Shown: piece after piece, positions 6,625 through 23,510 of the stretch
Layout of the letters: every line of letters starts with the position of its first letter
How positions within the stretch are numbered: the stretch's first letter is position 1
NCBI GenBank assembly: GCA_964636085.1
Contig: CAZWPQ010000025.1
Span: 9,936 to 33,767 of the forward strand
Reading direction: 5' to 3'
Source of the DNA: an uncultured Nitrososphaerota archaeon
Lineage (GTDB): Archaea; Asgardarchaeota; Njordarchaeia; Njordarchaeales; Panguiarchaeaceae
DNA length: 23,832 nt
Notes under the pieces: generated by a model
What the model saw: only the letters and a program-made list of their open reading frames with translations
What the model was told of the DNA's origin: nothing
Databases searched by the model: none
Translations under genes and position numbers: made by a program

Positions 6625-7498
6625 GATTGACCACCCCCATAAGTTTCTCGATTTTTTCTAACACCTCCTTATTGAGAGAGTCTAGACGCCCAAAAGAAAA
6701 AGCCAACAGCTCCGATACATAAAAAACAGGAAGAACTCTCCCCTTTAATTCTCTAGATTTTTTCATTTGCCCCTCCTCCAAATTAAACTTGCATAACGGG
6801 CATGTAGTAACAAACATATCTGCCCCCATCTTTATGGCAGATTCGGCTATCTCCTTTATTCTATCCCACATAACTTCGGGATCCCTAACAACACCGTAGC
6901 TCCCACAACATTCATTCCTATCTGGGTAATCCACAGGCTCTATACCTATATTCAAGAGTATGTCCTCAATAACTGTTGGATCTTCTGGGTCGTCTATGGC
7001 TACTTCTCGGGGTCTAAGCAATAAACAGCCATAAAAAGCCGCAGCTTTAAGGCCCTTGAGTGGTTTTTTTACTTTTCTTCTTATGTTTTCGTACCCAATA
7101 TAATCCCTTAGTAATTCGAGTAAATGTACCACTTTTATCCTACCCTCATACTCTGGCTCGTCATCTAGATATTTTCTCAATCTTTCAGCACCATCTAGAT
7201 CTGTTTTGTATCTTCTATCTGCTTGTTTTAGAGTGTGATTACACATGGAGCAAACTGTTAGAATTATACTTTCGGCATTATATTTTTTGGCCACCTCTTG
7301 AGCTCTTATAAGGTTTCTTAGTGGAGCTACTGTAAATGCAACCGAATCTGTCGGCAAGTTATATACAACCCCACAACAAGTCCAATTATCGATTTCTATG
7401 AGTTCAATACCGAATTCCTCCAAGATCGCTTTTGTAGCCTTCTCGTATCCGATCGCAGTGGCCTTAACTGTGCAACCGGGATAATATACCAATCTCAT
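6617..7498 (-). CDS. hdrB: Heterodisulfide reductase subunit B (two CCG domains), copy 1
   Basis: YYPGC...WTCCG...CSMC and FYGC...ECCG...CPLC: all ten CCG-domain cysteines are present. Confidence 0.93.
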   Translation of the reverse strand: MRLVYYPGCTVKATAIGYEKATKAILEEFGIELIEIDNWTCCGVVYNLPTDSVAFTVAPLRNLIRAQEVAKKYNAESIILTVCSMCNHTLKQADRRYKTDLDGAERLRKYLDDEPEYEGRIKVVHLLELLRDYIGYENIRRKVKKPLKGLKAAAFYGCLLLRPREVAIDDPEDPTVIEDILLNIGIEPVDYPDRNECCGSYGVVRDPEVMWDRIKEIAESAIKMGADMFVTTCPLCKFNLEEGQMKKSRELKGRVLPVFYVSELLAFSFGRLDSLNKEVLEKIEKLMGVVNRE

Positions 7499-7504
7499 AT
7501 CAAT

Positions 7505-7885
7505 TCACCCCGTATATTTCCTACCAGCTGCCACAAGGGCAATAGGAGGATATTTTTCAAGATTCCTAATCCTTCTCAAATCAATAGCATCCAGTCTTTT
7601 ACGTAGCCTTATTACTCTAAGACCCTCCATTATTTTTGCCACGTCTAGGTTTCTTGGACATCTCACGGAACAAGTAAAACAGGTAGCACAATACCATATC
7701 GATTCCACATCCAGTACCCTCTCATCACCTAGCTGGATTAGATGTATAACCTGATACGGCAAGAGATCCATGTGGCTAGCCATAGGGCACCCCGCGCCAC
7801 ATTTTCCACACAGGTAGCATAGATATACATCCTGTTCCGTCAACTCATAGATTTTTTGCGCTAATCTGCTAGCCATATCCTTCAT
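7505..7885 (-). CDS. hdrC: Heterodisulfide reductase subunit C (short form), copy 1
   Basis: CYLCGKCGAGCP and IWYCATCFTCSVRCP; directly upstream of hdrB. Confidence 0.9.
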   Translation of the reverse strand: MKDMASRLAQKIYELTEQDVYLCYLCGKCGAGCPMASHMDLLPYQVIHLIQLGDERVLDVESIWYCATCFTCSVRCPRNLDVAKIMEGLRVIRLRKRLDAIDLRRIRNLEKYPPIALVAAGRKYTG

Positions 7886-8442
7886 CCCTCTCCTAACAAT
7901 TTCTTTCCATAGTTATAGCCCTCCTCAAATGCCTTAAGGTTAAGATCAAGATACCTTCCCCTTACTCCCTGTATAACACTTTTCTTCATTGTTTCTGGAT
8001 CTATTAGTTTTGATATCGCTGTGAATGCCCCAACCATAACTATGTTCGCTACAATTCTTCTTCCTAAACCATCTGCGATCCTTGTAGCTGGTATCTTGTA
8101 GACCCTGGCTTTCTTTGCTCGGTCATCAAGCCTAACTAGGTCCTCATCAACAATTAACGTTCCTCCGTTCTTCAAGATCCCGATATATGTGTCATAGGCC
8201 TCCTGATACATTATAATCAAGTAATCCGCACTCCTAACCAACGGATAATCTATCTCCCTCTCGGTGTCTATCACAACCCTAGAAGCACATCTGCCGCCAC
8301 GGGCTTCAGGACCATAGCTAGGAAGATACGTTGAGTTGTATCCCTTTAACATGGCTGCATTTCCTATTATGAATCCAGTAAGGAGGATCCCTTGTCCTCC
8401 ATAACCACCGACTATTATCTCGATTCTACCCACATTCCTCAC
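7882..8442 (-). CDS. korC: 2-oxoacid:ferredoxin oxidoreductase gamma subunit
   Basis: GYGGQG, SYGPEARGG and ANIVMVGA motifs; overlaps both mvhA and hdrC by 4 nt. Confidence 0.9.
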   Translation of the reverse strand: MRNVGRIEIIVGGYGGQGILLTGFIIGNAAMLKGYNSTYLPSYGPEARGGRCASRVVIDTEREIDYPLVRSADYLIIMYQEAYDTYIGILKNGGTLIVDEDLVRLDDRAKKARVYKIPATRIADGLGRRIVANIVMVGAFTAISKLIDPETMKKSVIQGVRGRYLDLNLKAFEEGYNYGKKLLGEG

Positions 8443-9887
8443 CTCTTTATTTTCTTCAATAATTTACTAACATTATCATAAATTCCAATAGATACTGTAA
8501 TTGCACCTGGGATATTATGTGTTGAACAGGCTAGACAAGGATCATATGCTCTGAATGCCATCTCTATCATGTCTAATATTGCATCGTCACATTTTCCATC
8601 GATTATAAGTCTCTCCGATACCCTTCTTATGTCCAAATTTATACTAGGATTATTCATTGTTGTCGGTATTATTAGGTTAACCATAGTTGCTATACCCTCC
8701 ATGTTAGACTCATAGTGATGTATGAGTAGTCCTCTAGGTGCCTCTACTGCTGATATACCAACACGAATTATCTCGCCTTCTGTGTTAAGCACATCTCTTG
8801 ATAAGATATCCTCATCTTGAATCAGCTCTAAAATCCTTTCGCTGGCATACACCATTTCGATTACCCTAGCATAGTGATAGGCCATAGTATGATGTGCTGG
8901 TTTGCCAAATAGTTCTACAAACCTTTCATAGAACTCCTGAGCCTTCTCTGTCGCGAATCCATCTGCAACATTTAACCTACCTAGTGGCCCCACTCGATAA
9001 ACTCCACTATCTGGACCATCAATTATTCCTTTCCAGCCAATCCTTTTTAAATAAGGCATCTTTGTGTAACTCCAAGGAACAACAGCTTCCGCAATATAAT
9101 CTAGATACTCTTTTGGTTCAAACTTATATAGCTCCTTGCCATTAGTATCAACAACTCTTATCTTTCCATCATAAAAGTTTACCCTGTTATGGTCATCAAC
9201 AATACCAGCATAGTGGGTTTTAAGGATATACATGTCTCCAAATACTATATCCTTATACTCTTCCTTCTGTATTAGTTCTGAAAACAATTCTACAGACTCC
9301 ACGGAGAATTTATATAGTTCCTTGGCATACTCTTCAATCTCCTTCACTTCTTCTTTGCTTAACGATTTACTTAACCCACCAGGAATAGACGTAACGGGAT
9401 GTATCGCCTTTCCTCCTATGATTTCCTCTATTCTCGTGATCTTTTCTCTCATCCTTAGTACCTTCTTAACAAGCTCAGGATGTCTCTTGTAGATACCTAT
9501 TATGCTCCTTTCTCTTCTATCAGCATGAGGAGATACAATGAAATCTGGTAGCGCTAGAGCATAGTAATGGATAGAGTGACTATCAAGCATATGTGCACAA
9601 TACCCAAGCTCTCTAATTTTCTTCGCAGCGGGTGGCGGTTCTCTCCCGTATAACATATCAGCAGCCTTTGCAGAAGCCATGTGATGAGCCCAAGGACAAA
9701 CACCACATATCCTAGTTACTATCCTAGGGAGCTCCTCCACTGGTCTACCTATGCAAAAACGCTCAAACCCTCTAAACTCTATTATCTGGAAGTACGCATT
9801 CTTGACTTTCCCCTTCTCGTCCAAGAATATCTTTATCTCTGCTTCTCCCTCCAATCTGGTTGCAGGGGATATCGTGATAACACTCAT
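8439..9887 (-). CDS. mvhA: [NiFe] hydrogenase large subunit, group 3c (F420-non-reducing, Hdr-linked)
   Basis: L1 RICGVCPWAHH, EAPRGLLIHHY, and L2 DPCLACSTH followed by a C-terminal extension for proteolytic maturation; mvhDGA synteny. Confidence 0.93.
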   Translation of the reverse strand: MSVITISPATRLEGEAEIKIFLDEKGKVKNAYFQIIEFRGFERFCIGRPVEELPRIVTRICGVCPWAHHMASAKAADMLYGREPPPAAKKIRELGYCAHMLDSHSIHYYALALPDFIVSPHADRRERSIIGIYKRHPELVKKVLRMREKITRIEEIIGGKAIHPVTSIPGGLSKSLSKEEVKEIEEYAKELYKFSVESVELFSELIQKEEYKDIVFGDMYILKTHYAGIVDDHNRVNFYDGKIRVVDTNGKELYKFEPKEYLDYIAEAVVPWSYTKMPYLKRIGWKGIIDGPDSGVYRVGPLGRLNVADGFATEKAQEFYERFVELFGKPAHHTMAYHYARVIEMVYASERILELIQDEDILSRDVLNTEGEIIRVGISAVEAPRGLLIHHYESNMEGIATMVNLIIPTTMNNPSINLDIRRVSERLIIDGKCDDAILDMIEMAFRAYDPCLACSTHNIPGAITVSIGIYDNVSKLLKKIKR

Positions 9888-10876
9888 TTTAACCTCCTCC
9901 TCGCTATTCTATGAAGCCTACTCAACCCAAGAGTAAAACGATAAAATAGGCCCACAGGATCACTAATTTTTTCAACTCTCTCCACCAATTCTTCATCGCT
10001 AAGTTTTGGCTCATTAGCTATTTCTATCAATGCTGCTAGGCTACTTACCATTTTGGCTCCAGGATCTATAATCTCTGGAGCGGGGCCCATACATCCCCTG
10101 CATGGCATATTGGCCTTAATACACTTTAATCCACAACCACCCCTTGTTATTGGTCCTAGACATATTATTCCTTGGGCTAAAAAACACTTATTAGGATCTA
10201 TATCCTTAACCTCATGAATTCTCCTAAAGCTACTTATCTCTATCTTCTCAGGTTTTTCTCTTTCACACTCATCACAAAGAGTTTTTAATGACGCAACAAC
10301 CGTCCCTTTTTGAATAGGTTTTCCATGTTCGAAATGTCCCAATAATAAACCTATGGCCTCGACTATAGACTCCGTTGGTGGTGGACACCCAGGTATATAA
10401 ATGTCTACCTCAATTAAATCGTCAACCTTAAGGTTCTCATCCAGTAATTTTGGTGCAGATACTCCATCATCACTTTTTCCACGTCCAGGAATAGTCCCCT
10501 CCTTATTAATTGTTGAAGGAGATTCAAAGTAGGCAATTTTAAATAACTCATCCACTCTATATAGATCCGCTAGGTCAGGTATACCGCCAAAACAGGCACA
10601 CGCACCAAATGCAATCTTAATTTTTGATTTCCTAGCAATTTTCTCTATAATATCTCTCTGCTTCTCGGTCCTGATGCTTCCCTGAAAAATCGCTATATCT
10701 ATGGATTCCAGTTTCTCTATATCTTCCTCCTTGAAATCAGTAGCTATGGGCCAGTACACAATCTCTATAGAGCCCAGCACATCAAGGAGTTTTTCATGCA
10801 GATCTATGATAGACATATCACAGCCGCCGCATACCTCTCCTGGAACTATAGCCATTTTATACATTTTGCCACCCAT
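9884..10876 (-). CDS. mvhG: [NiFe] hydrogenase small subunit, group 3c
   Basis: CGGC, FGACACFGG, IPGCPP, LCDEC and CFLAQGIICLGPITRGGC...CRGCMGP. Confidence 0.93.
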   Translation of the reverse strand: MGGKMYKMAIVPGEVCGGCDMSIIDLHEKLLDVLGSIEIVYWPIATDFKEEDIEKLESIDIAIFQGSIRTEKQRDIIEKIARKSKIKIAFGACACFGGIPDLADLYRVDELFKIAYFESPSTINKEGTIPGRGKSDDGVSAPKLLDENLKVDDLIEVDIYIPGCPPPTESIVEAIGLLLGHFEHGKPIQKGTVVASLKTLCDECEREKPEKIEISSFRRIHEVKDIDPNKCFLAQGIICLGPITRGGCGLKCIKANMPCRGCMGPAPEIIDPGAKMVSSLAALIEIANEPKLSDEELVERVEKISDPVGLFYRFTLGLSRLHRIARRRLK

Positions 10877-10877
10877 A

Positions 10878-11303
10878 CTACTCCCTCACTATGGGGCCCA
10901 ATTCTTTTAGCTTCTTCACAAAATCCTTGACTACCTCAACAAATTTCTTGGCCTCTGTAGCGGAAATCCACTCAAGCCTCAGCCTTTCGGGCTCTATACC
11001 CATCTGCGCAAGGAGCTTCTTCATCAATGCGACACGTTTAAGTGCCTTAAAATTACCCCTAAGGAAATGACAATCAGAGGGTGTATGACACCCCCCAATT
11101 AAGACTCCATCAGCCCCCGATTCAAAAGCCTTTACTACATACTGCATATCTACAAATCCAGAACACGGGACAGTAATAGATATTATATTGGGCGGGTACT
11201 TCATCCTACTAACGCCAGCAAGATCTGCACCCGCCGAAGCACAATACTGACACAAGAATGCGAATATTTTTGGCTCCCAGTTTCGTATATGATTTTCCTT
11301 CAT
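10878..11303 (-). CDS. mvhD: Hydrogenase/Hdr adaptor [2Fe-2S] subunit (canonical)
   Basis: FLCQYCASAGADLAG, VPCSG, GGCHTPSDCHF..GN and ERLRLEWISATE. Confidence 0.93.
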   Translation of the reverse strand: MKENHIRNWEPKIFAFLCQYCASAGADLAGVSRMKYPPNIISITVPCSGFVDMQYVVKAFESGADGVLIGGCHTPSDCHFLRGNFKALKRVALMKKLLAQMGIEPERLRLEWISATEAKKFVEVVKDFVKKLKELGPIVRE

Positions 11304-11395
11304 ATAGATTACCCTAAGTAAAAATCACTATAGTAATCCCTATATAATAACCATAAACAGATATATAAAAGTCTGCATATACATAATTGAAAATT

Positions 11396-11413
11396 TATAT
11401 ACAAATGTATATA
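11396..11413. promoter_or_regulatory. Perfect inverted repeat TATATACA-AA-TGTATATA upstream of the mvhD operon (candidate operator/promoter element)
   Basis: 8-bp arms with a 2-nt spacer, read directly in the AT-rich intergenic region 11304-11504. Confidence 0.4.
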
Positions 11414-11459
11414 GATATTTATAGTGGATAAAGTATGGAAAAACAAACCCGTAAATAAT

Positions 11460-11503
11460 AAAAAGAGATCATGAATAATATTGTAAAAAATACAAATCAT
11501 GAT
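11460..11503 (-). terminator. Candidate terminator after tusA (bulged hairpin followed by T-run)
   Basis: The minus strand reads ATCATGA-T-TTGTA-TTTTT-TACAA-TATTAT-TCATGAT-CTC-TTTTT immediately after the tusA stop. Confidence 0.4.
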
Positions 11504-11504
11504 G

Positions 11505-11771
11505 CTACTTTTTGCGTCTCATGAAGATTCTCCAGTATCCTGGTTCCTCTATGACACCCAGGAATTCGTGTCCTACCTTCTTTGCCCATTTTGGAAGATC
11601 ACGAGCTGTTCCAGGATCAGAACTCAGTACCTCTAGAACCCCATCTATAGGGATCTCTGTGATTGCTCTTTTTGCCGCTAGAAGTGGGCCTGGACAGGAT
11701 ACTCCTCTAGCATCCACAACTTTATCTGGTTTTATTTTTTCTAGCTCTTCCTTTGGGAGCCCCTCACTCAT
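11505..11771 (-). CDS. tusA: TusA/SirA family sulfurtransferase (sulfur carrier)
   Basis: VDARGVSCPGPLL (CPxP motif) and LEVLSSDPGTARDLPKW. Start set at ATG 11771 behind an AGGTGA RBS. Confidence 0.92.
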   Translation of the reverse strand: MSEGLPKEELEKIKPDKVVDARGVSCPGPLLAAKRAITEIPIDGVLEVLSSDPGTARDLPKWAKKVGHEFLGVIEEPGYWRIFMRRKK

Positions 11772-11805
11772 ATTATTCACCTATCAAAAACTATGGCTAT
11801 ATGGT

Positions 11806-12216
11806 TTATATAAAGAATGCTATTTCGGCTTCTTTTGCAGTGCTTACTATCTCAGCTGCACCCACGAAATCATCTGCTAGGTATATGTCTTCTAGTTTAG
11901 CATTCCATGCTTTTGCGGCGGCAGAACAGACATGTATTCTGACTGTACCCAACTCTTTAGCTTCTTTTAGCATTTCATACCATGGCTTTAGTCCTGCATT
12001 TTTGAGGCCCTTCTCTAGCTCCTCTGCTAATTCTTTATGCTCGCTGAGCTCCTTATTTTTCTCTAGATTCTTTTTGAGAAATGCATATACTCCCCATAGC
12101 ATTAGGTATATATCAACTTCCATATCCATAGCTACTGCTCCACTTGTTAATACGGCGGCACCTAACAATCTGTCAGGAGTACCAGAAAATATTACCAATA
12201 CCATTTTCTCTGGCAT
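11806..12216 (-). CDS. DsrE/DsrF/DrsH-like sulfur relay protein
   Basis: FSGTPDRL..AAVL.SGAVAMDMEVDIYLMLWG, a single conserved Cys in IHVCS, and C-terminal VGAAE...FFI; adjacent to tusA. Confidence 0.85.
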   Translation of the reverse strand: MPEKMVLVIFSGTPDRLLGAAVLTSGAVAMDMEVDIYLMLWGVYAFLKKNLEKNKELSEHKELAEELEKGLKNAGLKPWYEMLKEAKELGTVRIHVCSAAAKAWNAKLEDIYLADDFVGAAEIVSTAKEAEIAFFI

Positions 12217-12281
12217 TTTTTATCCCTATACGCTTCTATTTATACAAATATTATTATAAATATATAGAATCATATATACAA

Positions 12282-12689
12282 TTATAGCTCGATCCTCATT
12301 GCACCGGTATCCTTGTCCTTGACGAGCCTTATCCCATAATTTTCAAGTATTGTGGAGCCCAGTATTATGTCTATATGGCTAGCAATCATTTCTAGATATT
12401 CGGGAGGTAGAACGGATTTAAGATTTTTATCTATGAGCCAGACATACATGTTCTTTAATGTTTTTCCTTTTATCTCTATGTCTAATATTGCATACTCACT
12501 TAAATGTGCTCTTTGTTCTAAGCCTAGCAAGGCTTCGACTTTTGCTCCTGTTTCCCATGCCTTACCGAATAACTCCTCGAATTTATCCTTTGACATGAAT
12601 GCAAGATGAAAGTATTGGTAATCCAGAAGAGCTCTACATCTATGTGATTTGTCGCCTAATCTGATGATTACTTCTTGTATGGCTGCCAT
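12282..12689 (-). CDS. Retropepsin-like (clan AA aspartic protease fold) protein with degenerate catalytic motif
   Basis: RALLDYQ in place of ALxDTG, a DIEIKG strand and C-terminal DIILGSTILENYGI, matching the ILG..L motif; about 135 aa. Confidence 0.55.
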   Translation of the reverse strand: MAAIQEVIIRLGDKSHRCRALLDYQYFHLAFMSKDKFEELFGKAWETGAKVEALLGLEQRAHLSEYAILDIEIKGKTLKNMYVWLIDKNLKSVLPPEYLEMIASHIDIILGSTILENYGIRLVKDKDTGAMRIEL

Positions 12690-12712
12690 TCTTATTTCCT
12701 ATATCTACTAAA

Positions 12713-13582
12713 TCACTTACCTAGAATCTCATTTATCATTTTTAGTCTGTCATTCTCCAAATATTCTTCCTTATCCATTGCATAGGCAATTAGCTCTGGC
12801 TCATAGAATACTGGAAGTACTTTACCCAGCTTGTCCTTTCTCCTTTTCTGCCCCTCCTCTAAATTAAATGCACATAGTGGACATGTAGTAACAAAAGCAT
12901 TTGCCCCTCTCTCAATGGATGTTTTTGCTATGACATATATCCTGTCCCAAACAGCGTCGGGGTCCTTCGTCACCAAGTAACCACCACAACACTGGTTCTT
13001 GTAGGGGTAATCGATTGCCTCGGCACCAAGACTCCGGGTTATTTCCTCCATTATTGTTGGTTCCTCCGGATTGTCTATTCCTATTCCTTCTGGTCTAAGG
13101 AGATAGCATCCATAGAAAGGTGCTATCTTAAGACCCTTGAGTTGCCTAACTATCCTCCTCTTCAAATTTCGGAGACTAACAATGTCTCTTATGACCTCCA
13201 TAAAGTGGACAACTTTTATCTCGGCTTCATAATATGGTTCATCTTCTATAAAGTAGAAGACTCTATCGCGGACCTCATCGCTTTCCTTGTATCTTTCGTT
13301 CGCATATTTTAGAGTATTAAAACACATCGAGCATACCGTCAACAGATACTCGTTATCTATCCCAAGTTCTTTCTTCTCCTTTTGTGCGTATATTAGATTT
13401 CTTATCGGTGCGACGAGATGGTAATATGTATCCTTCGATAATCCTGGATATACTCCACAGCAAACCCAGTTCTTCAACTCTATTACCTCTATACCAAACT
13501 CTCTTAGAACTCCAATTGCTGCCTTTTCATATGCCCTAGCAGTTGTTTTTACAGTGCATCCTGGATAGTATAGCATCCGCAT
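12713..13582 (-). CDS. hdrB: Heterodisulfide reductase subunit B (two CCG domains), copy 2
   Basis: YYPGC...WVCCG...CSMC and FYGC...QCCGG...CPLC. Confidence 0.93.
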   Translation of the reverse strand: MRMLYYPGCTVKTTARAYEKAAIGVLREFGIEVIELKNWVCCGVYPGLSKDTYYHLVAPIRNLIYAQKEKKELGIDNEYLLTVCSMCFNTLKYANERYKESDEVRDRVFYFIEDEPYYEAEIKVVHFMEVIRDIVSLRNLKRRIVRQLKGLKIAPFYGCYLLRPEGIGIDNPEEPTIMEEITRSLGAEAIDYPYKNQCCGGYLVTKDPDAVWDRIYVIAKTSIERGANAFVTTCPLCAFNLEEGQKRRKDKLGKVLPVFYEPELIAYAMDKEEYLENDRLKMINEILGK

Positions 13583-13587
13583 CTAGA

Positions 13588-13959
13588 TCACCCCGTATAT
13601 TTCCTTCCAGCACCTACCAAAGCTATTGTAGGTAGAGCCTCAAGCTCCCTCACGCCCCTAAGCTCAATCGCATCCTTCCTCTTTCTTAGATTAATAAGTC
13701 TTAGGGCCTCAATTATGGCGGTGATGTTTATCTCCCTCGGGCATCTCTGGGTACAGGCTAAACAAGAAACACAATACCATATAGCATTTGTATCAACGAC
13801 CGATTCATCGCCAATACGTACCATATGTATTATCTGATGGGGCTTCACATCCATCAGGTCCGAAAATGGACAGACGGCCGAACACCGGCCGCATGCTATG
13901 CATAATTCCGCGTCTTCCCTACATATATCATATACTTTTTTCGTAAAATCCTTCTTCAT
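13588..13959 (-). CDS. hdrC: Heterodisulfide reductase subunit C (short form), copy 2
   Basis: CIACGRCSAVCP and IWYCVSCLACTQRCP. Start set at ATG 13959 (MKKDF) behind a GGTGA RBS. Confidence 0.9.
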   Translation of the reverse strand: MKKDFTKKVYDICREDAELCIACGRCSAVCPFSDLMDVKPHQIIHMVRIGDESVVDTNAIWYCVSCLACTQRCPREINITAIIEALRLINLRKRKDAIELRGVRELEALPTIALVGAGRKYTG

Positions 13960-13970
13960 AATATCACCAA

Positions 13971-14261
13971 TTAAAGTTCCTCTCCAAACCATTCAAAAAT
14001 GTATCGGTCCTCATCATCCTTTCCTGCTATCTTGACGACACCATGTCTGAGTAAAGTTGCTATGTACCAAGATAGTTCATGCATATCCATTCCAACCAGC
14101 TTGGATATCTCAGGAGCGCTTTTTGGGCCATTCTCTAGGGCCTTCTTTATCTTGTCTTTTATATCAATGAACGACCTCGCATTTTTAGCTAGCTCTATTG
14201 GGGGGGCAATATATTCAATTTTTTCCTTTAGGAGATCCACAGTTAGTTTTTTGGTAGCCAA
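13971..14261 (-). CDS. Small winged helix-turn-helix domain protein inside the Hdr operon
   Basis: KIKKALENGPKSAPEISKLVGMDMHELSWYIATLLRHGVV fits a wHTH pattern. TTG start at 14261 behind GGAGGTGA. Confidence 0.7.
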   Translation of the reverse strand: MATKKLTVDLLKEKIEYIAPPIELAKNARSFIDIKDKIKKALENGPKSAPEISKLVGMDMHELSWYIATLLRHGVVKIAGKDDEDRYIFEWFGEEL

Positions 14262-14266
14262 AGCAC

Positions 14267-16240
14267 TCACCTCCAAACGCGTGCTGAAGCCCTAATCATA
14301 TTTTTAATTTGATGAGTGGAAAGCGTCTTCAACTGGATAGCTTCCGATGGACACGCCGCTGTACATGCTCCACACCCTAAACACAAGACCTCGTTTACCC
14401 AAGCTCTCTCTCCTATACCAGGGTATTCCTTGATAGATATCGCCCCCGAAGGACATACCTCCATACATTTCTTTGACAAATTACAAATACTTGGATCAAC
14501 GATAGCCGTATTAGGTTCAAGCTCTACTTTTCCATGGATCAGTAGTGAAGTTACCTTTGCAGCAGCGGCGGATGCGGAGGCTAAAGTCTCAGTAATCGTT
14601 TTTGGTCCCTGTATGGTTCCAGCTATAAAAACTCCTGCTCTAAGCGTGTCGACTGGACGAAGTTTTGGGTGGGCTTCCTGCAGAAACCCATCTGTACCAG
14701 TTGATACCTTCAGTATTTCTTGGATTTTTTGTGCATCGTTAGCCTCCATACCTACTGATAATACCACAAGATCTGGTGTTAGTGTAATTTCTTTTCCGTT
14801 AAGTAGATAATCCTTAACTCTTACAATGAGTCCATTCTTGTCCCTTAAGACGATAGGCGGCTCGTTGTCGGGGTATTTGATAAATTTCATCTTTTTTCTC
14901 TGTGCCTCTAGGTAATAGAGTTCATACGAGCCATAGGTTCTTATATCTCTGTAGAGGTGGTATATCTTTGTATGGGGAAACCTTTCAGAGATTTTTAATG
15001 AAGTATATATTGTGGATGTACAGCAATATCTAGAGCAATATTGGTTTGTTTTCTCTCCTTTCCTAGGCTCCTGTCTACTACCTACGCAATATATGAAGCA
15101 TATGCTAGATATTTTTTTACCGTTAATGGTGAGCTCACTAGCATCACGGGGGATTGATGATAAAATTCTTTCTAGCTGCGGTAATGTGATGACCTCTGGA
15201 ACTTCTCCATACCCAAACTCGCCTTTCTTTGGTTCATAAGGTTTAAATCCGGTGGCTACTATTATCGCACCAACCTTGAACCTGTGTATTTCTTCTCTCT
15301 GGTTGAGATCTATGGAATCACCTACAATTTTAATACATTCACCACATTTTGTACATACATTTCCATCAATCGCTGGAATTTCTGGATAGGCTCCCTCGTA
15401 GGGATAGTATATGGCCTTTCGTTTGGTTAGCCCGAAATCATATTCGTTGGGAACCTCTACTGGACATGCTTTTATCGCATCTTTCATTCTTGGATGATCT
15501 TTCAGAACATATCTAGGCCTAACCTTAACTGTGACCTCGAAATCACCAATGTAGCCCTCTACTTTGATAACCTCACCATTGGTTATGATTATTACATTGT
15601 TCAATTTTTTCAATTCATCCACTAATTTCATGACGATGTCTCTCCCACTTCTACCATCTGGAAATGTTAACCACCATTTGGATACATTACCCCCCAAGAA
15701 TGGTTCTTTCTCAACGATAATAACATTAAATCCTATAGATGCAAGATCTATTGCTGCCTTCATTCCCGCTATTCCACCACCTATCACTAAGACACTTCTT
15801 TCTGCAGCTACACTTATCTTTTCCAAACTCCTTGCAAGCTTGACATATTCGATGCCAGATATTATATGGCTTATAGCCTTTTTTGTAGCCAACTCACGGT
15901 CATGCGTATGGGCCCATGAACAATGCTCCCTAATGTTGACATGATATAGAAGATATTCATTTAGCCCTCCCCGCTTTATGGTGTTCCTAAATGTCATTTC
16001 GTGTAGCTTAGGAGAACATGCGGCCACAACAACTCCGTCGAGACCCATCTCTTTAATATCCTCAATTATCATCTGCTGGCCGGTATCCGAGCACATAAAC
16101 ATGAAATCTTTTGCTACGGCAACTCCCGGGTAATCTTTTATTGCCTCTATTATTTTACTAATATCAACATAATTTGATATATTCCCCCCGCAGTGACATA
16201 CATATACCCCTATTCTCCCCCTCTCCTCTTTTACACTCAT
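14267..16240 (-). CDS. hdrA: HdrA-family flavoprotein, long partner (N-terminal Fe-S domain present, several motifs degenerate)
   Basis: VCHCGGNI/MCS/AACSP/REHCSW, GGGIAG, CVGSRQ...CSRYCC and C-terminal ferredoxin. Lacks TLDCxxC and the post-CC Lys. Confidence 0.9.
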   Translation of the reverse strand: MSVKEERGRIGVYVCHCGGNISNYVDISKIIEAIKDYPGVAVAKDFMFMCSDTGQQMIIEDIKEMGLDGVVVAACSPKLHEMTFRNTIKRGGLNEYLLYHVNIREHCSWAHTHDRELATKKAISHIISGIEYVKLARSLEKISVAAERSVLVIGGGIAGMKAAIDLASIGFNVIIVEKEPFLGGNVSKWWLTFPDGRSGRDIVMKLVDELKKLNNVIIITNGEVIKVEGYIGDFEVTVKVRPRYVLKDHPRMKDAIKACPVEVPNEYDFGLTKRKAIYYPYEGAYPEIPAIDGNVCTKCGECIKIVGDSIDLNQREEIHRFKVGAIIVATGFKPYEPKKGEFGYGEVPEVITLPQLERILSSIPRDASELTINGKKISSICFIYCVGSRQEPRKGEKTNQYCSRYCCTSTIYTSLKISERFPHTKIYHLYRDIRTYGSYELYYLEAQRKKMKFIKYPDNEPPIVLRDKNGLIVRVKDYLLNGKEITLTPDLVVLSVGMEANDAQKIQEILKVSTGTDGFLQEAHPKLRPVDTLRAGVFIAGTIQGPKTITETLASASAAAAKVTSLLIHGKVELEPNTAIVDPSICNLSKKCMEVCPSGAISIKEYPGIGERAWVNEVLCLGCGACTAACPSEAIQLKTLSTHQIKNMIRASARVWR

Positions 16241-17550
16241 CTACGCCCACCCCTCAGATTCATAACATATCTTGCAGCAGACATAGCTGCTGAATTAGCA
16301 TCAACAATAGAGTCAGGAATATCCTTGGGTCCAGAGGCCGTACCCGCTACAAAGACCCCGGGTATGCTTGTCTGATTTGGAGCAGAATTTGGATCAATGA
16401 CCTTGATCCATCCATATTCATCAAGATCCAAGTTAGCATTTTTGAATACCTTAGCAATTTCATTTTCTGGTCGAAAACCAACCGCCAATACGACTAAGTC
16501 AAATTTCTCATTCTTCATTTTTCCTTCTGAATAGTCGAAATATTTTATATTTATACTGCCATCAGAGTTTTCTTCAAGCAAGTCCACCTGCCCCTTAACA
16601 AATTCTATACCCATTAGTCTTGATTGATTGTAGAATTCTTCAAATCCTTTCCCAAATGCCCTTATATCGATATAGAATATGGTCGCCTCAGCCAATGGTA
16701 GGGCCCCGAGCACTAGTTGAGCTTGTTTGATAGAGTACATACAGCAGACTTGAGAACATATGGGATAATTCAGCTTCAAATCTCTCGATCCAGCACATAA
16801 AACAAATGCTATTCTTTCTGGCTCCTTAAAATCGAGAGGCCTAGCAACACCCCCAAGAGGGCTCGTGGGGGAAAGCAACCTATCCATTTGGATTGATGTT
16901 ATTACATTCTTGAATTTACCATATCTAAACTCTGGTTTTTCTTTCGGGTCAAATAGTCTATATCCAGTAGCTATGATTACCGCTTTTACTCTTATATTGA
17001 ATTTCATTTGCTGGTCTAGAAAATTAATAGCATCAGCGGGACATACATTCTCACACAAGCCACACATAAGGCAATTATCAATATCTATGACCGCTTTCTT
17101 CGGGATCGCCACGTCAAAGGCTATGTATACGGCCTTTCTTCCGCGCAAGTCAAAATTAAATTCATCTGGAATAACAATTGGACAGATTTTTTCACACCAT
17201 GTACATGCAGTACACTTACTAAAATCAACATATGTTGGTCTTCTGAGTATTATAGCATTGAAGTCTCCCTTTACTCGTCTGACTACCTCCAATACATCAG
17301 CATATACTAGGAGGTCTATATTTGGGTGATGTTGGACAGCGGCCATTTTTGGGGTCACTATACATGATGCACAGTCTAGGGTTGGAAATACCTTACTGAG
17401 CAAAGCCATTTTGCCGCCGATACTTGGAGATTTCTCCACCAAAAGAACCTTGAATCCCATATCTCCTAAGGTAAGAGAAGCCTCCATTCCTGCTATTCCA
17501 CCACCTATAACAAGGACATCATACTCTGATTTTGGTTCATTTATCAACAT
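16237..17550 (-). CDS. hdrA: HdrA-family flavoprotein, short partner (no N-terminal domain, no C-terminal ferredoxin)
   Basis: GGGIAG, FPTLDCASC, intact inserted 2x[4Fe-4S] domain and CAGSRD...CSQVCCMYSIK; ends after GPKDIPDS. Confidence 0.88.
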   Translation of the reverse strand: MLINEPKSEYDVLVIGGGIAGMEASLTLGDMGFKVLLVEKSPSIGGKMALLSKVFPTLDCASCIVTPKMAAVQHHPNIDLLVYADVLEVVRRVKGDFNAIILRRPTYVDFSKCTACTWCEKICPIVIPDEFNFDLRGRKAVYIAFDVAIPKKAVIDIDNCLMCGLCENVCPADAINFLDQQMKFNIRVKAVIIATGYRLFDPKEKPEFRYGKFKNVITSIQMDRLLSPTSPLGGVARPLDFKEPERIAFVLCAGSRDLKLNYPICSQVCCMYSIKQAQLVLGALPLAEATIFYIDIRAFGKGFEEFYNQSRLMGIEFVKGQVDLLEENSDGSINIKYFDYSEGKMKNEKFDLVVLAVGFRPENEIAKVFKNANLDLDEYGWIKVIDPNSAPNQTSIPGVFVAGTASGPKDIPDSIVDANSAAMSAARYVMNLRGGRR

Positions 17551-17552
17551 AT

Positions 17553-17969
17553 CTATCCCCTCTTCTTAACTGGGCCTAGCTTTTCAAGCTTCTCATAGAA
17601 CTCATTTATTAATCTTATGAACGGTTTTACACATACGGAACATATAGCAGCCATTTTTACCCTTTCTGGTTCATATCCATGCTCCTTTATAAGTCTCACC
17701 GCCTCCTCTACACGTTTCGCTGTGATGGCTGTACAGTCTGTCCTAAAGGGGCAGTCAGTACCATCCGCGGCTATAAAAACTCCGTCAAAACCACTTTCAA
17801 GCGCCAGGAGGATATACTCTGGCCTTATCATGGAAGAGCACGGAATTCTAATAATAGTAGTCGTTGGCGGGTAGTCCTTATGTTGCAATCCGGCAAGATC
17901 TATAGCAGAGTCAGAAATATATATAGTCGAAAACACAAGGATTCGCGGTCTAAAATTGTTGTCCGTCAC
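17553..17969 (-). CDS. MvhD/FlpD-like Fe-S subunit with atypical cysteine pattern
   Basis: IDLAG...YP...IRIPCSS..RPEYIL.AL.SGFDGVFI...PERVKM is the MvhD signature. The N-terminal CxxC is absent and there is a new C-terminal CSVC. Confidence 0.8.
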   Translation of the reverse strand: MTDNNFRPRILVFSTIYISDSAIDLAGLQHKDYPPTTTIIRIPCSSMIRPEYILLALESGFDGVFIAADGTDCPFRTDCTAITAKRVEEAVRLIKEHGYEPERVKMAAICSVCVKPFIRLINEFYEKLEKLGPVKKRG

Positions 17970-18184: not shown

Positions 18185-18652
18185 ATGTTATGGGTGCGTT
18201 TTATGGGTTTGCTTGATATCGTTGACATACATCCAGACAGGCTTCCCTACTTTCCAACTATAAGCGGAACAAGAATTCCATTAAAGTTTATACTTGATCT
18301 ATTTGGCGCTGGGCTTCAACCAAACGATGTAGTAGAGGTTTTTCCAGATGTTGATATCAATGTTGTATTGTTGATATATAATAATAGAACATTTTTTAAG
18401 AAATGCTTAAAGGCACTCAAACTTGTTTCGGTTAGACGAGATATTCTATGCGGAATACCGACTATTCGAGGAACCAGAATCCCAGTACATATTGTGTATG
18501 ATATGTTGGACTCAGGATATACTCCCCATGAGATCTTGGAAGAATATCCTGAACTTTCTCTGAGTACAATACGTGGGTTGATAAGATATAGGAGCATACT
18601 AGAGCCTATTGTTAGCCGTATAAGGGAAAGAGTTCTGGCTGAGGAAGAATGA
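18185..18652 (+). CDS. DUF433-family antitoxin-like protein with two tandem DUF433 repeats
   Basis: PTISGTRIPLKFILDLF..G....VVEVFPDV and PTIRGTRIPVHIVYDML.SG....ILEEYPEL. ATGA overlap with the downstream PIN-like gene. Confidence 0.8.
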   Translation: MLWVRFMGLLDIVDIHPDRLPYFPTISGTRIPLKFILDLFGAGLQPNDVVEVFPDVDINVVLLIYNNRTFFKKCLKALKLVSVRRDILCGIPTIRGTRIPVHIVYDMLDSGYTPHEILEEYPELSLSTIRGLIRYRSILEPIVSRIRERVLAEEE

Positions 18653-19020
18653 GGTTTCTTGTAGACAGACATATACCAAAAAGGATAATCATTTTTCTAA
18701 AGGACAAGGGATATACTGCGAAAAGAATTAAACCAACTGCACGAAATTCTGAAATTGCCGTGGAGGCTCTTAAAGGAGACTATATAATTTTAACGGGAGA
18801 CATAGACTTCATTTCAGGATTATCCAAAAAATATGCAAAATCAGTAAAAAGAATCGTGATAAGGTTCAAAAAATACATCTGAGATCAAATCCTTCAATGC
18901 TTCGGCAAAATATTCGATGAGGTGATGGATTCCCTAAAAAGTACACCATTAGTGATAATAAAAGAGAAAAACCTAAAGATAAGGGTTAATATAAACGCCA
19001 AAATAATAGAATGTCCTTAG
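18649..19020 (+). pseudogene. DUF5615/Mut7-C-like PIN toxin interrupted by an in-frame TGA at 18880-18882
   Basis: MRFLVDRHIP...ILTGDIDF...IVIRF, then TGA. The same frame continues DQILQCFGKIFDEVMDSLKSTPLVIIKEKNLKIRV... to TAG at 19018-19020, matching the family's usual C-terminus. Confidence 0.7.
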
Positions 19021-19129
19021 TGAAAGCTATTTCTTAGAAACCCCCCACCCCCTGGCCATTATCATAGATATAATTTCTAATACTACCTAGCTATGCAGAC
19101 TCCTAGCCGTCCAGATCGATAAAAATTTC

Positions 19130-19234
19130 CTAGTATATGGCTATATATCCAGCATCTAAGAGCCTACTTTTTTCTGGCAGCCATTTCCATACATAATATG
19201 CACAGTTGGTAATGAAAATTAAAGGAAATTCCAT
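19130..19234 (-). pseudogene. Possible remnant of a class I SAM-dependent methyltransferase
   Basis: 34-codon ORF MEFPLIFITNCAYYVWKWLPEKSRLLDAGYIAIY*. It resembles the start of motif I (LP.....LDAG) but lacks the glycine loop. Confidence 0.25.
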
Positions 19235-19239
19235 TATTA

Positions 19240-19261
19240 GTAATACTTAAACAGGTATTAC
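19240..19261. promoter_or_regulatory. Inverted repeat GTAATAC-N8-GTATTAC, candidate autoregulatory operator of the antitoxin
   Basis: Perfect 7-bp arms flank TTAAACAG (TATA-like), 30 nt upstream of the antitoxin ATG. A further TAATAC lies at 19271-19276. Confidence 0.45.
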
Positions 19262-19290
19262 CAAATATGATAATACTTTAGTGAATCTAC

Positions 19291-19521
19291 ATGAGTAATC
19301 TTGTTGTCGTAACTGGTAAAGTGCCTAGAGAGCTAAAGAGGAAAGCGAAAAAGCTTGGAATAAATATCAATAGAGTCATAAGAGAAGCCCTAGAAAATGC
19401 TGTTAGGAAACGGGAAGAGGAACTATTCATAGAAAGTCTTAACAGGTGTGCGGGTATTCTAAATAAAATAGATATTAACCGTGTTGCCAAAAGTATGAGA
19501 GAGGATAGGGGGATCCGATGA
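19291..19521 (+). CDS. CcdA-family/ribbon-helix-helix type II antitoxin (archaeal VapB-like)
   Basis: VVTGKVPRELKRKAKKLGININRVIREALENAVR...IDINRVAKSMREDR, a typical archaeal antitoxin pattern ending in (I/M)REDR. Confidence 0.8.
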   Translation: MSNLVVVTGKVPRELKRKAKKLGININRVIREALENAVRKREEELFIESLNRCAGILNKIDINRVAKSMREDRGIR

Positions 19522-19589
19522 GTTATCTCATGGATGCTAATGCTTTCATTGTTGTTAGAAGAAAGAAACCATTGATTCTATTTCGATAA
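19518..19589 (+). pseudogene. Truncated VapC/PIN toxin remnant
   Basis: ATGA overlap with the antitoxin stop. MSYLMDANAFI matches the PIN beta1-Asp motif; stop after 23 codons. Confidence 0.6.
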
Positions 19590-19709
19590 AGCATACTCAT
19601 ACATGGCGCAAATTCGTTCGTCCCAGTTCTACAACTAATCCATTTATTAGTTAGCTTTAAATAGTTTTCTTCTCTATATATAAGTAGTGGGTAGTACGGC
19701 GTACAAAAT

Positions 19710-19946
19710 ATGTATATAGTAAAAGTCACAAGGAAATACCAAATCACCATTCCGAAAGATATTAGGGAAGCCTTCAACATTAGTATTGGAGATATGCTAC
19801 TCATAAGGAGTGAAGGCGATAGAATAGTTATAGAGCCCATAATTAGGAAGAATAAGGACGCCATAGAAAAAATTCTTAATATCTTTAGGGGATCCATGCC
19901 CGTTGACGCTGTTAAACTTGTTGAGGAGTCTTGGGATGAAGACTAG
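19710..19946 (+). CDS. vapB: AbrB/MazE/SpoVT-family antitoxin
   Basis: VKVTRKYQITIPKDIREAFNISIGD.L......DRIVIEP AbrB signature; overlaps the PIN gene. Confidence 0.88.
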   Translation: MYIVKVTRKYQITIPKDIREAFNISIGDMLLIRSEGDRIVIEPIIRKNKDAIEKILNIFRGSMPVDAVKLVEESWDED

Positions 19947-20439
19947 AGTGTATATAGATACAAATATTTTTGTCTATGCAATATTTCATGACCCAAAATT
20001 TGGCGACATATGTAGCAGAATTTTGCGCGATATGGGTTCGAGGCTATTTGATGCTTATGGCTCTATTCTGGTGGCTATAGAGCTACTAGGGAGCATATCA
20101 AAGATAGATCCCACTATAGCGTCGAATGCAACAAACCTCTATTTTCAACTTCCACATAAAATCCTGAATGTTAATCTAAAAACTCTGCGAATAGCTAGCC
20201 ACATAACTGATATTGTGAATCTAAGATACGATTCCATACACCTAGCCCTAATGATCGAGAACTCGGTAGACAGAATAATAACCAATGACAAGGACGATTG
20301 GTACAGAGCAAAAAACAACTTTAAGAAAATAAAAGAAAAATTAGAAAAGGAGGGATTCAAAATCGAAATAAACAACATCAACATCATTACTCCAGAAGAA
20401 TATAGGCTATTCGAAGAAACACTACATAAACGAGCCTAA
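19936..20439 (+). CDS. vapC: PIN-domain toxin (intact)
   Basis: VYIDTNIF, VAIEL, YDSIH and ITNDKD supply four acidic active-site positions. Start set at ATG 19936 behind a GAGGAG RBS. Confidence 0.85.
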   Translation: MKTRVYIDTNIFVYAIFHDPKFGDICSRILRDMGSRLFDAYGSILVAIELLGSISKIDPTIASNATNLYFQLPHKILNVNLKTLRIASHITDIVNLRYDSIHLALMIENSVDRIITNDKDDWYRAKNNFKKIKEKLEKEGFKIEINNINIITPEEYRLFEETLHKRA

Positions 20440-20491: not shown

Positions 20492-21328
20492 TTATGTTGT
20501 TTTTCTTATTATTCTTAGGAGTTTATCCACGATTTCTCCGAATTTCGCGCTTATCTCGCTTTCCCCCGATGCTATGAATGGTGTCCCATCGTCAGTCATT
20601 GTTACCACCCTTGGATCTATTGGTAGGTATCCTAGGAAGGGGACACCAAGCGTGTCTGCTGTCTCTTCTCCTCCTCCTTTACCAAATATGTATATTATCT
20701 CCCCACACTTTGGACATTTCAAGCCACGCATGTTCTCTATTATCCCTAGCACTGGAACACCAGTCAGTTTTGCCATTCCTAGGGCCTTTTTAGCATCATG
20801 AAGTGCTATTTTTTGTGGGGTAACCACAATTATTAGGCCAGTTAATTTTGGTATGTTCTTCATGACCGACAGTGCCTCGTCTCCTGTGCCCGGTGGCAGA
20901 TCTATTATTAGAAAATCTAATTCTCCCCAGTTTACTTGTGCTATAAATTGGAGTATAGCCTTAGCCACGAGAGGCCCCATCCAAACGACTGGTGAATCTT
21001 CCTCTGGAAGTAAATACTGTATGGACATTACCTTAATGCCTAGTGGGCCCTCTAGTGGCACTATACCATTCTCATCTAATGTAGGTCTATTATCCCCCGT
21101 TTTCAACGCAATAGGTATATCTGGGCCATATATGTCCGCATCTAGTATGCCTACTTTATAGCCACGCATGGCGAGAGCATAAGCCAAATTTACTGCTACA
21201 GTAGTTTTACCGACGCCACCTTTACCAGACATTATAGCTATCTTATATCTGATCTTCGACATTCTTTCCTCTGCTTGCTGTTTCAATTGCATAAAGGCCA
21301 ATTGAGCCTCATTTTTATTTTGCGACAA
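20492..21328 (-). CDS. mrp: Mrp/ApbC/NBP35 family Fe-S cluster carrier ATPase
   Basis: [26 protein letters not shown] and ENM...CPKC motifs. Confidence 0.92.
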
Positions 21329-21388
21329 TACATACTCACCCTATTAAACTTGTATTTATGCAGATATTAACATATGCATATAGAAATA

Positions 21389-22270
21389 TTAATATAAAAG
21401 TTTTCTCAATATGTGTTCTCCCAACCGTATTATGCATCTCGAAGGCTCAGAATCTGGGGCAACATCAATTATCTGTTTTCCACCGATATATGCCTCAACT
21501 ATAGCCCTATCATAAACTATCTCCACTACTTCCACATCATATTCCTCCGCGATATTATATATCAAGTCTCTGGATCCACCCGGGATATCCGCTTTGTTTA
21601 GTGCTATTATTAGTGGCTTATTATACTTCACTACGAGTCCTATATATTTTTTAAGATCGCTCGCCCCTAGGGGCGTGGGTTCTGTTACAGCAACCACTAA
21701 ATCTGATTTGTTTATAGTTAACCATATGTTGGCTCCAGTTCCAGGAGCCGAATCTATGACAACAAAATCATATAGACACATCTTATTCTCTGCATATTTT
21801 AACGTTTTTAGTGTCACATTTACATGCTGTCTTACCCCCGGAAATACCTCTCCCTGGACTAGATGAATATTATCTCTTCTCCCCTCATATATTTCACCAA
21901 GTTTCCTATCTCTCGAGCTTATTGCATCCATTGGACACACAAGCCTACATAACCCACAGCCCTCACAAAGGTTTACTAGTAAATTTGGTTTCTCTCCTTT
22001 CCTGCCAATTAGTGCATTCTCTGGGCATTTATCTATACACATTCCACATCCGATGCATTTTTCCTCATCTATCAGGGGAGCAAAACCAGTTACATCTTCA
22101 GCTTTTGATCTAGGTATGCCAAGAAGAATATGTGTTACAGGAGATTCTACGTCAGCATCGATGACAAGTATCTTATAGCCTTTTTTCGATAAAAATGTCG
22201 CAATGCTAGTCGCTAATAACGACTTTCCAGTACCTCCCTTCCCACCACCAAATGTAATTATTTTCGTCAT
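21389..22270 (-). CDS. MinD-superfamily P-loop ATPase with inserted 2x[4Fe-4S] ferredoxin domain (COG1149-like), copy 2
   Basis: GGKGGTGKS, DADVESP, CIGCGMCIDKCP, CEGCGLCRLVCP, DSAPGTG and VTEPTPLG. Confidence 0.88.
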   Translation of the reverse strand: MTKIITFGGGKGGTGKSLLATSIATFLSKKGYKILVIDADVESPVTHILLGIPRSKAEDVTGFAPLIDEEKCIGCGMCIDKCPENALIGRKGEKPNLLVNLCEGCGLCRLVCPMDAISSRDRKLGEIYEGRRDNIHLVQGEVFPGVRQHVNVTLKTLKYAENKMCLYDFVVIDSAPGTGANIWLTINKSDLVVAVTEPTPLGASDLKKYIGLVVKYNKPLIIALNKADIPGGSRDLIYNIAEEYDVEVVEIVYDRAIVEAYIGGKQIIDVAPDSEPSRCIIRLGEHILRKLLY

Positions 22271-23498: not shown

Positions 23499-23510
23499 AA
23501 CACACACCCT

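Follow-up and report, generated by a model that had tools for sequence, protein, structure and literature searches.

What does an archaeal heterodisulfide reductase (Hdr)-like complex do with two sulfur-carrier proteins encoded in its own operon? The question is raised by a 23,832-nt stretch of DNA (hereafter the window) from contig CAZWPQ010000025.1 of a heat-loving Asgard archaeon of the order Njordarchaeales. Nine minus-strand open reading frames (ORFs), running from 17969 down to 11505 inside one long minus-strand gene run, encode an MvhD-like protein, two HdrA-like flavoproteins (HdrA1 and HdrA2), a small winged-helix protein, HdrC, HdrB, a lineage-restricted protein that we call X, and the carriers DsrE and TusA. 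From comparisons of sequence and gene order we propose, tentatively, that carrier-bound sulfur may be a redox partner of this flavin-based complex, that the sulfur would be handled by the complex's core (MvhD-like, HdrA1, HdrA2), and that the operon is a soluble version, peculiar to this lineage, of a gene set with a wide distribution.

Gene names come from Pfam and NCBIfam model scans of the window's ORFs. The core opens with the MvhD-like protein, the marker of the family (17553–17969; FlpD match, 6.7e-29), and continues with the short, QmoA-like HdrA1 of 437 aa (16237–17550; HdrA2-model positions 139–560 only) and the long, full-length, QmoB-like HdrA2 of 657 aa (14267–16240). The winged-helix protein (101 aa, no cysteine; 13971–14276) was named from a weak HTH_20 match plus a structure model. 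HdrC (13588–13992; Fer4_8 1.1e-12 and HdrC models) may truly start at the Met at 13959, and HdrB (12713–13582; CCG 2.5e-18) has two complete CCG domains, with all ten CCG-motif cysteines present in the sequence. Beyond X lie a DsrE2B-type sulfur carrier (11806–12216; DrsE_2 9.5e-10, and DsrE) and TusA (11505–11780; TusA 9.1e-22). Junctions within the run are overlaps or gaps of at most 25 nt, with the sole exception of 65 nt ahead of dsrE. An initial sequence-only reading of the window had described nine co-oriented genes ending in a single-cysteine DsrE and a CPxP TusA, and this description stands: all nine genes are on the minus strand, C97 is the sole cysteine of DsrE and is invariant in 7 orthologues, and the CPGP motif of TusA is invariant in 15 relatives. 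A DsrE profile of the 7 orthologues matches 2QS7 (SSO1126; 1.1e-29), a DsrE2B and thus a member of a group linked to Dsr or Hdr systems (Liu et al. 2014, PMC4175335). In vitro, homologues of the two carriers bind one another and pass sulfur groups between them (PMC4175335).

Is the carrier pair a fixture of this type of Hdr system or a chance neighbor? Within the order, dsrE is present in 8 of 14 genomes. A pattern scan of genome contigs catches only DsrE proteins fitting two peptide patterns and is not a census. In three genomes of the window's genus dsrE-tusA stands at the 3' end, after X. In the fourth genus genome and in the sister family it comes first, directly 5' of the MvhD-like gene, and in every other lineage examined it likewise lies 5' of the core. 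Outside the order, the arrangement dsrE-tusA-mvhD-like-hdrA1-hdrA2-small gene recurs in a Bathyarchaeota metagenome-assembled genome (MAG), in four loci of a second Asgard genus (g23), and in Vulcanisaeta sp. JCM 14467, an "Odinarchaeota" MAG, and a Fervidicoccaceae MAG; in these last three, 3–72 nt separate the genes. Bacterial operons read (ArsR)-(DsrE)-TusA-MvhD-HdrL-HdrA-78/79-aa protein followed by HdrC-HdrB or a QmoC-like protein, and the window TusA is 65% and 49% identical to the TusA of bacterial HdrL operons. At whichever end of the operon dsrE-tusA lies, the same MvhD-like/HdrA/HdrA/winged-helix core adjoins it. The sequence-only reading had held that it would fall if dsrE-tusA were not conserved next to this Hdr type; the pair has changed position but has been kept with the cluster, so the linkage it depended on is there.

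Several further observations concern these loci. In the second Asgard genus, extra TusA-like genes surround the QmoC-type operon (L078 4864–5094 and 11430–11648; L079 8608–8850; L080 6435–6662), an Mvh-Hdr cluster lies ~3–4 kb from it in two loci, and one genome (G075) carries the whole operon in two copies. A Fermentibacteria MAG (L086 8069–9852) has, after HdrB of an HdrL-type operon, a 429-aa Fer2/Fer4-GCV_H fusion and a NuoE-like protein; the fusion is a possible bridge to lipoate-dependent sHdr chemistry.

Which partner lies at the far end of the complex? The module downstream of the core differs among lineages. In most of the archaea examined the small gene is followed by one for a QmoC-like protein (360–411 aa): this is so in Vulcanisaeta, Fervidicoccaceae, Bathyarchaeota, the "Odin" MAG, the second Asgard genus, and a sister Njord genome (G008), and also in an Aminicenantes bacterium. 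After the QmoC-like gene those operons encode no CCG protein, and the archaeal ones keep both DsrE and TusA. The QmoC-like proteins of Vulcanisaeta (L081), Bathyarchaeota (L027), and G008 (L015) were scanned, the others being assigned by similarity or precomputed Pfam matches. Those three either combine an HdrC-like Fe-S domain with a nitrate-reductase-gamma-type membrane domain or match the NCBIfam qmoC model over its full length, the model scoring them at 188–227 bits, under its 300-bit cut-off.

The window's operon lacks QmoC and has an HdrC/HdrB pair in its place, which is not the family's own pair (HdrC of ~100 aa, HdrB of ~320 aa). Its HdrC shares 50% identity with the second HdrC of the window, 41% with one that is Sdh-linked, and 29% with the family's own. 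Its HdrB is 50% identical to the window's second HdrB, finds its nearest outside relatives (45–47% identity) in HdrA-HdrC-HdrB-SdhB-SdhA clusters of WOR-3, Methanomethylicota, and Bathyarchaeia, and does not significantly resemble the HdrB that belongs to the family itself in bacterial TusA-HdrL operons. In a maximum-likelihood tree the operon's "a" copies of HdrB (100/99) have as their sister group the "b" copies of the genus, which are linked to SdhBA (97/95). The two groups nest in a Njord clade of SdhBA-linked HdrBs, and family-type HdrBs lie across a very long branch. The tree makes the window pair a recent, Njord-internal duplicate of the pair linked to a fumarate-reductase-like SdhBA, and we infer that Njordarchaeales swapped QmoC for HdrCB(-SdhBA) and that the window's genus later duplicated HdrCB. 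In the relative G004 (L016 147–8551, contig C19) the order is dsrE-tusA-mvhD-like-hdrA1-hdrA2-wHTH-hdrC-hdrB-sdhB-sdhA, ten packed genes of which most overlap, with the sulfur-carrier core translationally coupled to the fumarate-reductase-like SdhBA. The corresponding candidate partner in the window lies at 4262–7885 on the minus strand, where Pfam matches identify a paralogous HdrC/HdrB followed by SdhB/SdhA-like fumarate reductase genes; this sdhBA adjoins the other HdrCB copy, not the operon's. Each genome examined has one SdhA.

These comparisons bear directly on where the sulfur chemistry takes place. The sequence-only reading had proposed a reductase that releases H2S from TusA/DsrE-bound sulfane sulfur, possibly fed by MvhAG. 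Spelled out, the CCG clusters of HdrB would directly cleave a TusA or DsrE persulfide or a TusA-S-S-DsrE "heterodisulfide" with H2 electrons delivered through MvhAG, as in methanogen Mvh-Hdr. HdrB has its full set of ten CCG cysteines, and the two carriers would parallel the two thiols of the methanogen heterodisulfide, CoM-S-S-CoB. DsrK, another CCG protein, acts on a protein-bound trisulfide. As McrA was not found in the genome, the usual Hdr substrate is unlikely here, and in two of the genus's genomes mvhDGA is a direct neighbor of the cluster, while in a third it shares its contig. We nonetheless consider HdrB-centered cleavage unlikely, because the carriers and core persist in QmoC-type operons where no CCG protein is encoded, and because the window HdrB is a recent duplicate of the SdhBA-linked HdrB, unrelated by any significant similarity to the HdrB of bacterial TusA-HdrL operons. 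As a conserved site of carrier-sulfur cleavage the CCG motif thus drops out: carriers kept without a CCG protein rule it out as the place where the family in general carries out its sulfur chemistry. That the carriers accompany the core under every type of terminal module, and that HdrCB is a late recruit, ties their function to the core.

The MvhAG hydrogenase comes with a canonical MvhD and an Hdr set that belong to it, and no hydrogenase occurs in the 8–10 kb flanks (or up to the contig end) of the Vulcanisaeta, Fervidicoccaceae, Bathyarchaeota, and "Odin" loci, although one was seen near the operon in the window's genus and in the second Asgard genus. In the window, mvhDGA begins ~200 nt past tusA and is immediately next to it, which corrects the sequence-only reading on this point. 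The gene neighborhood suggests a possible H2 input from the adjacent MvhAG in this lineage.

If the core handles the sulfur, how is it built? The MvhD-like protein shares just 37% identity with the canonical MvhD of its own genome, against 54% and 49% with MvhDs encoded in bacterial TusA-HdrL operons. The canonical pattern (N-terminal CxxC, GGCH...DCH), retained by the neighboring true MvhD, is replaced by FST..IS, AADGxDCP, DC, and ICSVC; the N-terminal CxxC is absent, and C44, C73, C79, C110, and C113 are invariant in alignments of 60 archaeal and bacterial relatives. A co-fold prediction of the MvhD-like protein with TusA (score 0.03, mark 0.32) speaks neither for nor against binding. HdrA1 covers only residues ~142–560 of methanogen HdrA, without the N- and C-terminal domains; in alignment it retains the FAD and LDCASC motifs, the cluster cysteines of the TrxR domain, and both clusters of the inserted ferredoxin domain. 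HdrA2 aligns end to end with the HdrA of 5ODC (2e-148) and keeps the N- and C-terminal domains that HdrA1 lacks, as well as the cluster cysteines of its N-terminal and TrxR domains, but it has lost both CSIC-motif cysteines and 4 of the 8 inserted-ferredoxin cysteines, and its first C-terminal ferredoxin motif has three cysteines. Aligned to 5ODC and 8RVV, neither protein carries all six cluster-binding cysteine sets of a single HdrA. Being reciprocally degenerate and complementary, the two would fit one asymmetric heterodimer doing the work of the methanogen homodimer.

Both HdrAs have counterparts across the family. An exhaustive search returned as the closest relatives of HdrA1 proteins of 740–930 aa, aligned on both flanks of a 265–450-aa insert; the flanks are 57% and 48% identical to one HdrL, and the GltD/Fer4_20 NAD(P)H-type insert is absent from HdrA1, as it is from the short HdrA of all archaeal forms examined. 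HdrA2 is 44–47% identical to its bacterial counterparts. In a FastTree phylogeny of 26 HdrAs over 435 columns, HdrA1 groups with the archaeal short HdrAs and bacterial HdrL, and HdrA2 with the family's second HdrA, each with support of 1.0; the genome's other HdrAs fall outside both clades. A small gene of 78–105 aa stands between HdrA2 and the terminal module in 15 of 15 aligned loci. The window's version resembles the 78-aa bacterial form weakly (30% identity, E 1.9e-6 in a small set), and its model (pLDDT 88) has three helices and a beta-hairpin in a winged-helix arrangement. A fold search gave generic ArsR/MarR-type matches only (E ≥ 3.6e-3), so no specific function can be assigned; a role as a thiol-based sensor is excluded, since the protein has no cysteine.

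In the mechanism we propose, HdrA1 and HdrA2 would form one asymmetric heterodimer around a flavin with three ports. Ferredoxin would dock at the first, through HdrA1's intact inserted ferredoxin domain, where bacteria have an NAD(P)H module. The second would lead through the C-terminal ferredoxin domain of HdrA2 and HdrC/HdrB to a high-potential partner, either a disulfide or SdhBA with fumarate, and the third would be the MvhD-like adaptor. The sulfur that TusA and DsrE carry, as a persulfide or a TusA-S(n)-DsrE bridge, would be a redox substrate and would be handled by the core, not specifically by HdrB. In this anaerobe the more likely net reaction would form H2S from sulfane sulfur, reduced ferredoxin and perhaps H2 donating the electrons.

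Which direction does the genome favor? The window has no LbpA-type, dsrAB/dsrC, or aprAB gene, as the sequence-only reading had said, and across the 83%-complete genome there was no match to DsrC, a sulfite-reductase domain (NIR_SIR), AprA, McrA (MCR_alpha), rhodanese, or YeeE, nor was DsrAB found. A genome search returned three Hdr sets. The genome's one GCV_H gene (lipoate-binding type) is on another contig, C39, and ATP sulfurylase (sat) stands alone at C11:29799–30434, beside a phosphodiesterase-family gene with no adenosine phosphosulfate (APS) kinase or reductase or sulfur genes near. With no Dsr, Apr, or Mcr genes and no LbpA nearby, the Dsr, Apr, sHdr, and methanogen pathways are unavailable as context for the operon. 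We accordingly reject dissimilatory sulfate or sulfite reduction, as no DsrAB, DsrC, or AprA was found in the 83%-complete genome, and methanogen-type CoM-S-S-CoB reduction, as no McrA was found there. The likely fermentative lifestyle described for this anaerobic archaeon (preprint 10.1101/2021.04.02.438162) favors an electron sink in which sulfane sulfur is reduced to H2S, and so does the fact that several cultured carriers of the operon reduce sulfur.

The terminal modules could also be read the other way. Carrier-bound sulfide or persulfide, or a TusA/DsrE dithiol, might be a mid-potential donor whose electrons part ways, some going to ferredoxin or NAD(P)+ and some to a sink of high potential, which would be quinone through QmoC or, here, fumarate through HdrCB and SdhBA. 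The family's terminal modules do include ones that lead to high-potential acceptors; hdrCB-sdhBA is joined to the core in the ten-gene operon of G004, and in one case (among L018–L020) a Bathyarchaeial HdrCB-SdhBA cluster lies beside fumarase and malic enzyme genes. The S0/HS- couple (~-270 mV) would sit suitably, above ferredoxin in potential and below menaquinone (-75 mV) or fumarate (+30 mV) (in part from PMC3333476). Such oxidative bifurcation is nevertheless doubtful in this host: no sulfite-forming or sulfane-disposing enzyme was found in the 83%-complete genome, the window's sdhBA sits with the other HdrCB copy, and nothing indicates that the host gains from sulfide oxidation. In a narrower version, whatever the direction, a TusA/DsrE dithiol, persulfide, or polysulfide bridge would be the mid-potential partner of flavin-based bifurcation or confurcation and dock at the rewired MvhD port. 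Of the other two ports, one would serve ferredoxin, or NAD(P)H in bacteria, and one a high-potential module that can be exchanged, leading to quinone through QmoC, to a disulfide through HdrCB, or to fumarate through HdrCB-SdhBA. This more specific scheme we regard as quite improbable.

Might the carriers not be substrates at all? TusA and DsrE could supply sulfur for cofactors or mature or regulate the complex, which would then be a general ferredoxin-linked bifurcating module that passes electrons to something else, be it fumarate or some disulfide. TusA has roles in sulfur supply for cofactors and tRNA (PMC4175335), and the unusual invariant cysteine set of the MvhD-like protein might need special assembly. 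The operon's TusA is the only one in the genome above the cut-off and must therefore also meet housekeeping needs; its DsrE is likewise the only one found there by tblastn. (A weak second TusA-like ORF, at G000 contig C2:28193–28363, scores 23 bits, under the cut-off.) We hold a purely auxiliary role to be very unlikely all the same. Dedicated carriers in redox operons of many phyla would be unusual for maturation, and the ArsR-type regulators found in front of two bacterial operons would be in keeping with a small molecule as the controlling signal. Archaeal DsrE-TusA pairs without nearby Hdr genes also point elsewhere: an SQR/FCSD-like flavoprotein gene follows them in 17 of 23 loci, often together with DUF1641, so the pair recurrently accompanies a sulfur-active flavoenzyme. 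The flavoprotein (Pyr_redox_2/FCSD-like, ~413 aa) occurs with the pair in Thermoplasmata, Aciduliprofundum, Thermoproteota, Thermofilaceae, and others (loci L028–L056) and in one Njord relative (L040), making up a second conserved carrier-flavoenzyme unit.

How does the operon compare with characterized systems? The closest published entity is the "type II" QmoABC, to which we liken it by gene order and published description. According to Neukirchen et al. 2023 (PMC10504309), type II Qmo, known from "Ca. Vulcanisaeta moutnovskia" and Ammonifex degensii, is nearer to HdrA than to bacterial Qmo; it is also found in organisms without Dsr or Apr, and its role has been called unclear (PMC10504309). 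The two share a short and a long HdrA-like flavoprotein in tandem (437 and 657 aa here), and the gene order of the Vulcanisaeta locus (JCM 14467) equals the archaeal form of the TusA/DsrE-linked family. The published table of V. moutnovskia QmoC, QmoB, and QmoA skips one accession between QmoC and QmoB (PMC10504309), which is where the winged-helix gene would sit. The window differs in having HdrC/HdrB instead of an HdrC/cytochrome-b fusion, a separate, cysteine-rewired MvhD gene, DsrE and TusA within the operon, and no AprAB link (there is no aprA match in the genome, and sat is alone on C11). The membrane subunit QmoC is replaced by soluble HdrB/HdrC behind two HdrA-like proteins in Gram-positive sulfate reducers and some sulfur oxidizers (PMC3333476, PMC10504309); those systems serve APS reductase, whereas the window is without AprAB and its HdrCB is of the fumarate-reductase-linked lineage.

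The methanogen MvhAGD-HdrABC complex (PDB 5ODC, 8RVU) gives the best sequence matches to both HdrAs, and it has in common with the window HdrC, a two-CCG HdrB, and an MvhD-type adaptor. It is built on an HdrA homodimer, however, in place of the window's two reciprocally degenerate HdrAs, and the window differs further in its rewired MvhD cysteines, the lack of a hydrogenase inside the operon, and the presence of sulfur carriers. The oxidative sHdr system resembles the window in placing DsrE2B-type and TusA carriers by Hdr-like genes and a small unassigned gene after hdrA (PMC4175335). The distinction from sHdr drawn in the sequence-only reading is nonetheless borne out, and we reject that identity: sHdr has two HdrCB pairs around a short, single-cluster sHdrA, whereas the window has one pair and two large HdrAs with ferredoxin domains, which score 377–499 bits to methanogen HdrA and 136–147 bits to sHdrA (6TJR), and sHdr has LbpA, whereas the window genome's sole GCV_H-type gene is on a different contig. 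Bacterial HdrL operons share with the window the MvhD-like protein, TusA, HdrA1/HdrL, HdrA2, and an orthologous small protein; in the window the NAD(P)H-type insert is missing, HdrCB is of a different kind, X has been added, and dsrE-tusA has shifted to the 3' end.

Between hdrB and the carrier genes lie X and a longer gap. X (12282–12689, minus strand; 135 aa) matches no Pfam or NCBIfam family; its model (pLDDT 87.5) has a retropepsin-like fold, with Foldseek hits to Ddi1 (RVP) and retroviral protease domains from E 3.5e-5. An active aspartic protease was rejected as its identity: the Asp is retained, but the D-T/S-G motif reads D-[YPA]-[QE]. X was found in 8 protein clusters only, all Njord-like, and is absent from the sister family; it is an accessory and does not belong to the core. 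The AT-rich gap of 65 nt between X and dsrE (12217–12281, minus strand) contains, read by eye, "tataaata" ~30 nt before the dsrE ATG, T-runs of at most 3, and no oligo-T terminator, so the letters would allow both read-through from hdrB-X into dsrE-tusA and an additional internal start. Past tusA, the intergenic stretch at 11304–11504 (minus strand) has T6, T5, and T5 tracts within ~70 nt of the stop codon, followed by an AT-rich stretch with TATA-like sequences before mvhD. Oligo-T tracts are a terminator-like signal in archaea. A 63-aa ORF within this spacer (11309–11500) was set aside as a gene; hydrophobic and of low complexity, it looks spurious.

Other genes flank the operon. Beyond that spacer a second cluster (2297–11303, minus strand) holds mvhDGA, a POR gamma gene, hdrC-hdrB, the sdhB-sdhA-like genes, and an hdrA; the relative G010 has a version of this mvhDGA-hdrCB-hdrA cluster without sdhBA. 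Upstream of the operon (18185–20439) are small genes of toxin-antitoxin type, among them a DUF433/DUF5615 pair, an ORF resembling CcdA, and one for a PIN-domain protein. They are followed at 20492–23831 (minus strand) by a NUBPL/ParA-type P-loop protein, two CbiA-ferredoxin fusions, and a NifX/FeMo-cofactor-domain protein, a row that may be an Fe-S or metallocluster carrier set.

Several points weigh against carrier-bound sulfur as the partner of this complex. No experiment has been done on any family member, and no catalytic sulfur site can be named in the core. The reductive direction is drawn from lifestyle alone, and quinone or fumarate partners would fit the oxidative direction equally. 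HdrB has a full active-site cysteine set, and in this genus it is possible that it acts directly on the carriers. The loci were picked by homology to the core, so its conservation across them is partly built into the sampling. At 83% completeness the genome-wide absences are provisional, and the TATA-like box ahead of dsrE makes separate transcription of dsrE-tusA possible.

What would the proposed role mean? In the literature searched, no paper describes a link of DsrE/TusA to an MvhD-like/HdrA/HdrA complex, and the earlier statement that the gene set lacks a functional description agrees with this. What is new in the window is the lack of an NAD(P)H module, an HdrCB borrowed from a fumarate-reductase system, the addition of a retropepsin-like orphan, and the transposition of the carrier genes. 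The comparison yields a rule, namely that the carriers belong to the MvhD/HdrA/HdrA core and that the terminal module can be swapped, and it places a sulfur-linked Hdr/Qmo-like complex in Asgard archaea. What the Hdr-like complexes of nonmethanogenic archaea, Asgard archaea included, act on is a question for which candidates are here encoded within the operon, and the comparison points to cultured organisms, Vulcanisaeta and Caldivirga, for enzyme tests. Should bifurcation at TusA/DsrE prove true, it would define a new class of bifurcating enzyme with protein-bound sulfur as substrate, widespread in anaerobes and present in Asgard archaea. If carrier-bound sulfur is reduced or oxidized by the complex, the published "type II Qmo" would be reread, and the operon would fill a gap, at a step inside the cytoplasm, in how sulfur is cycled where it is hot and anoxic.

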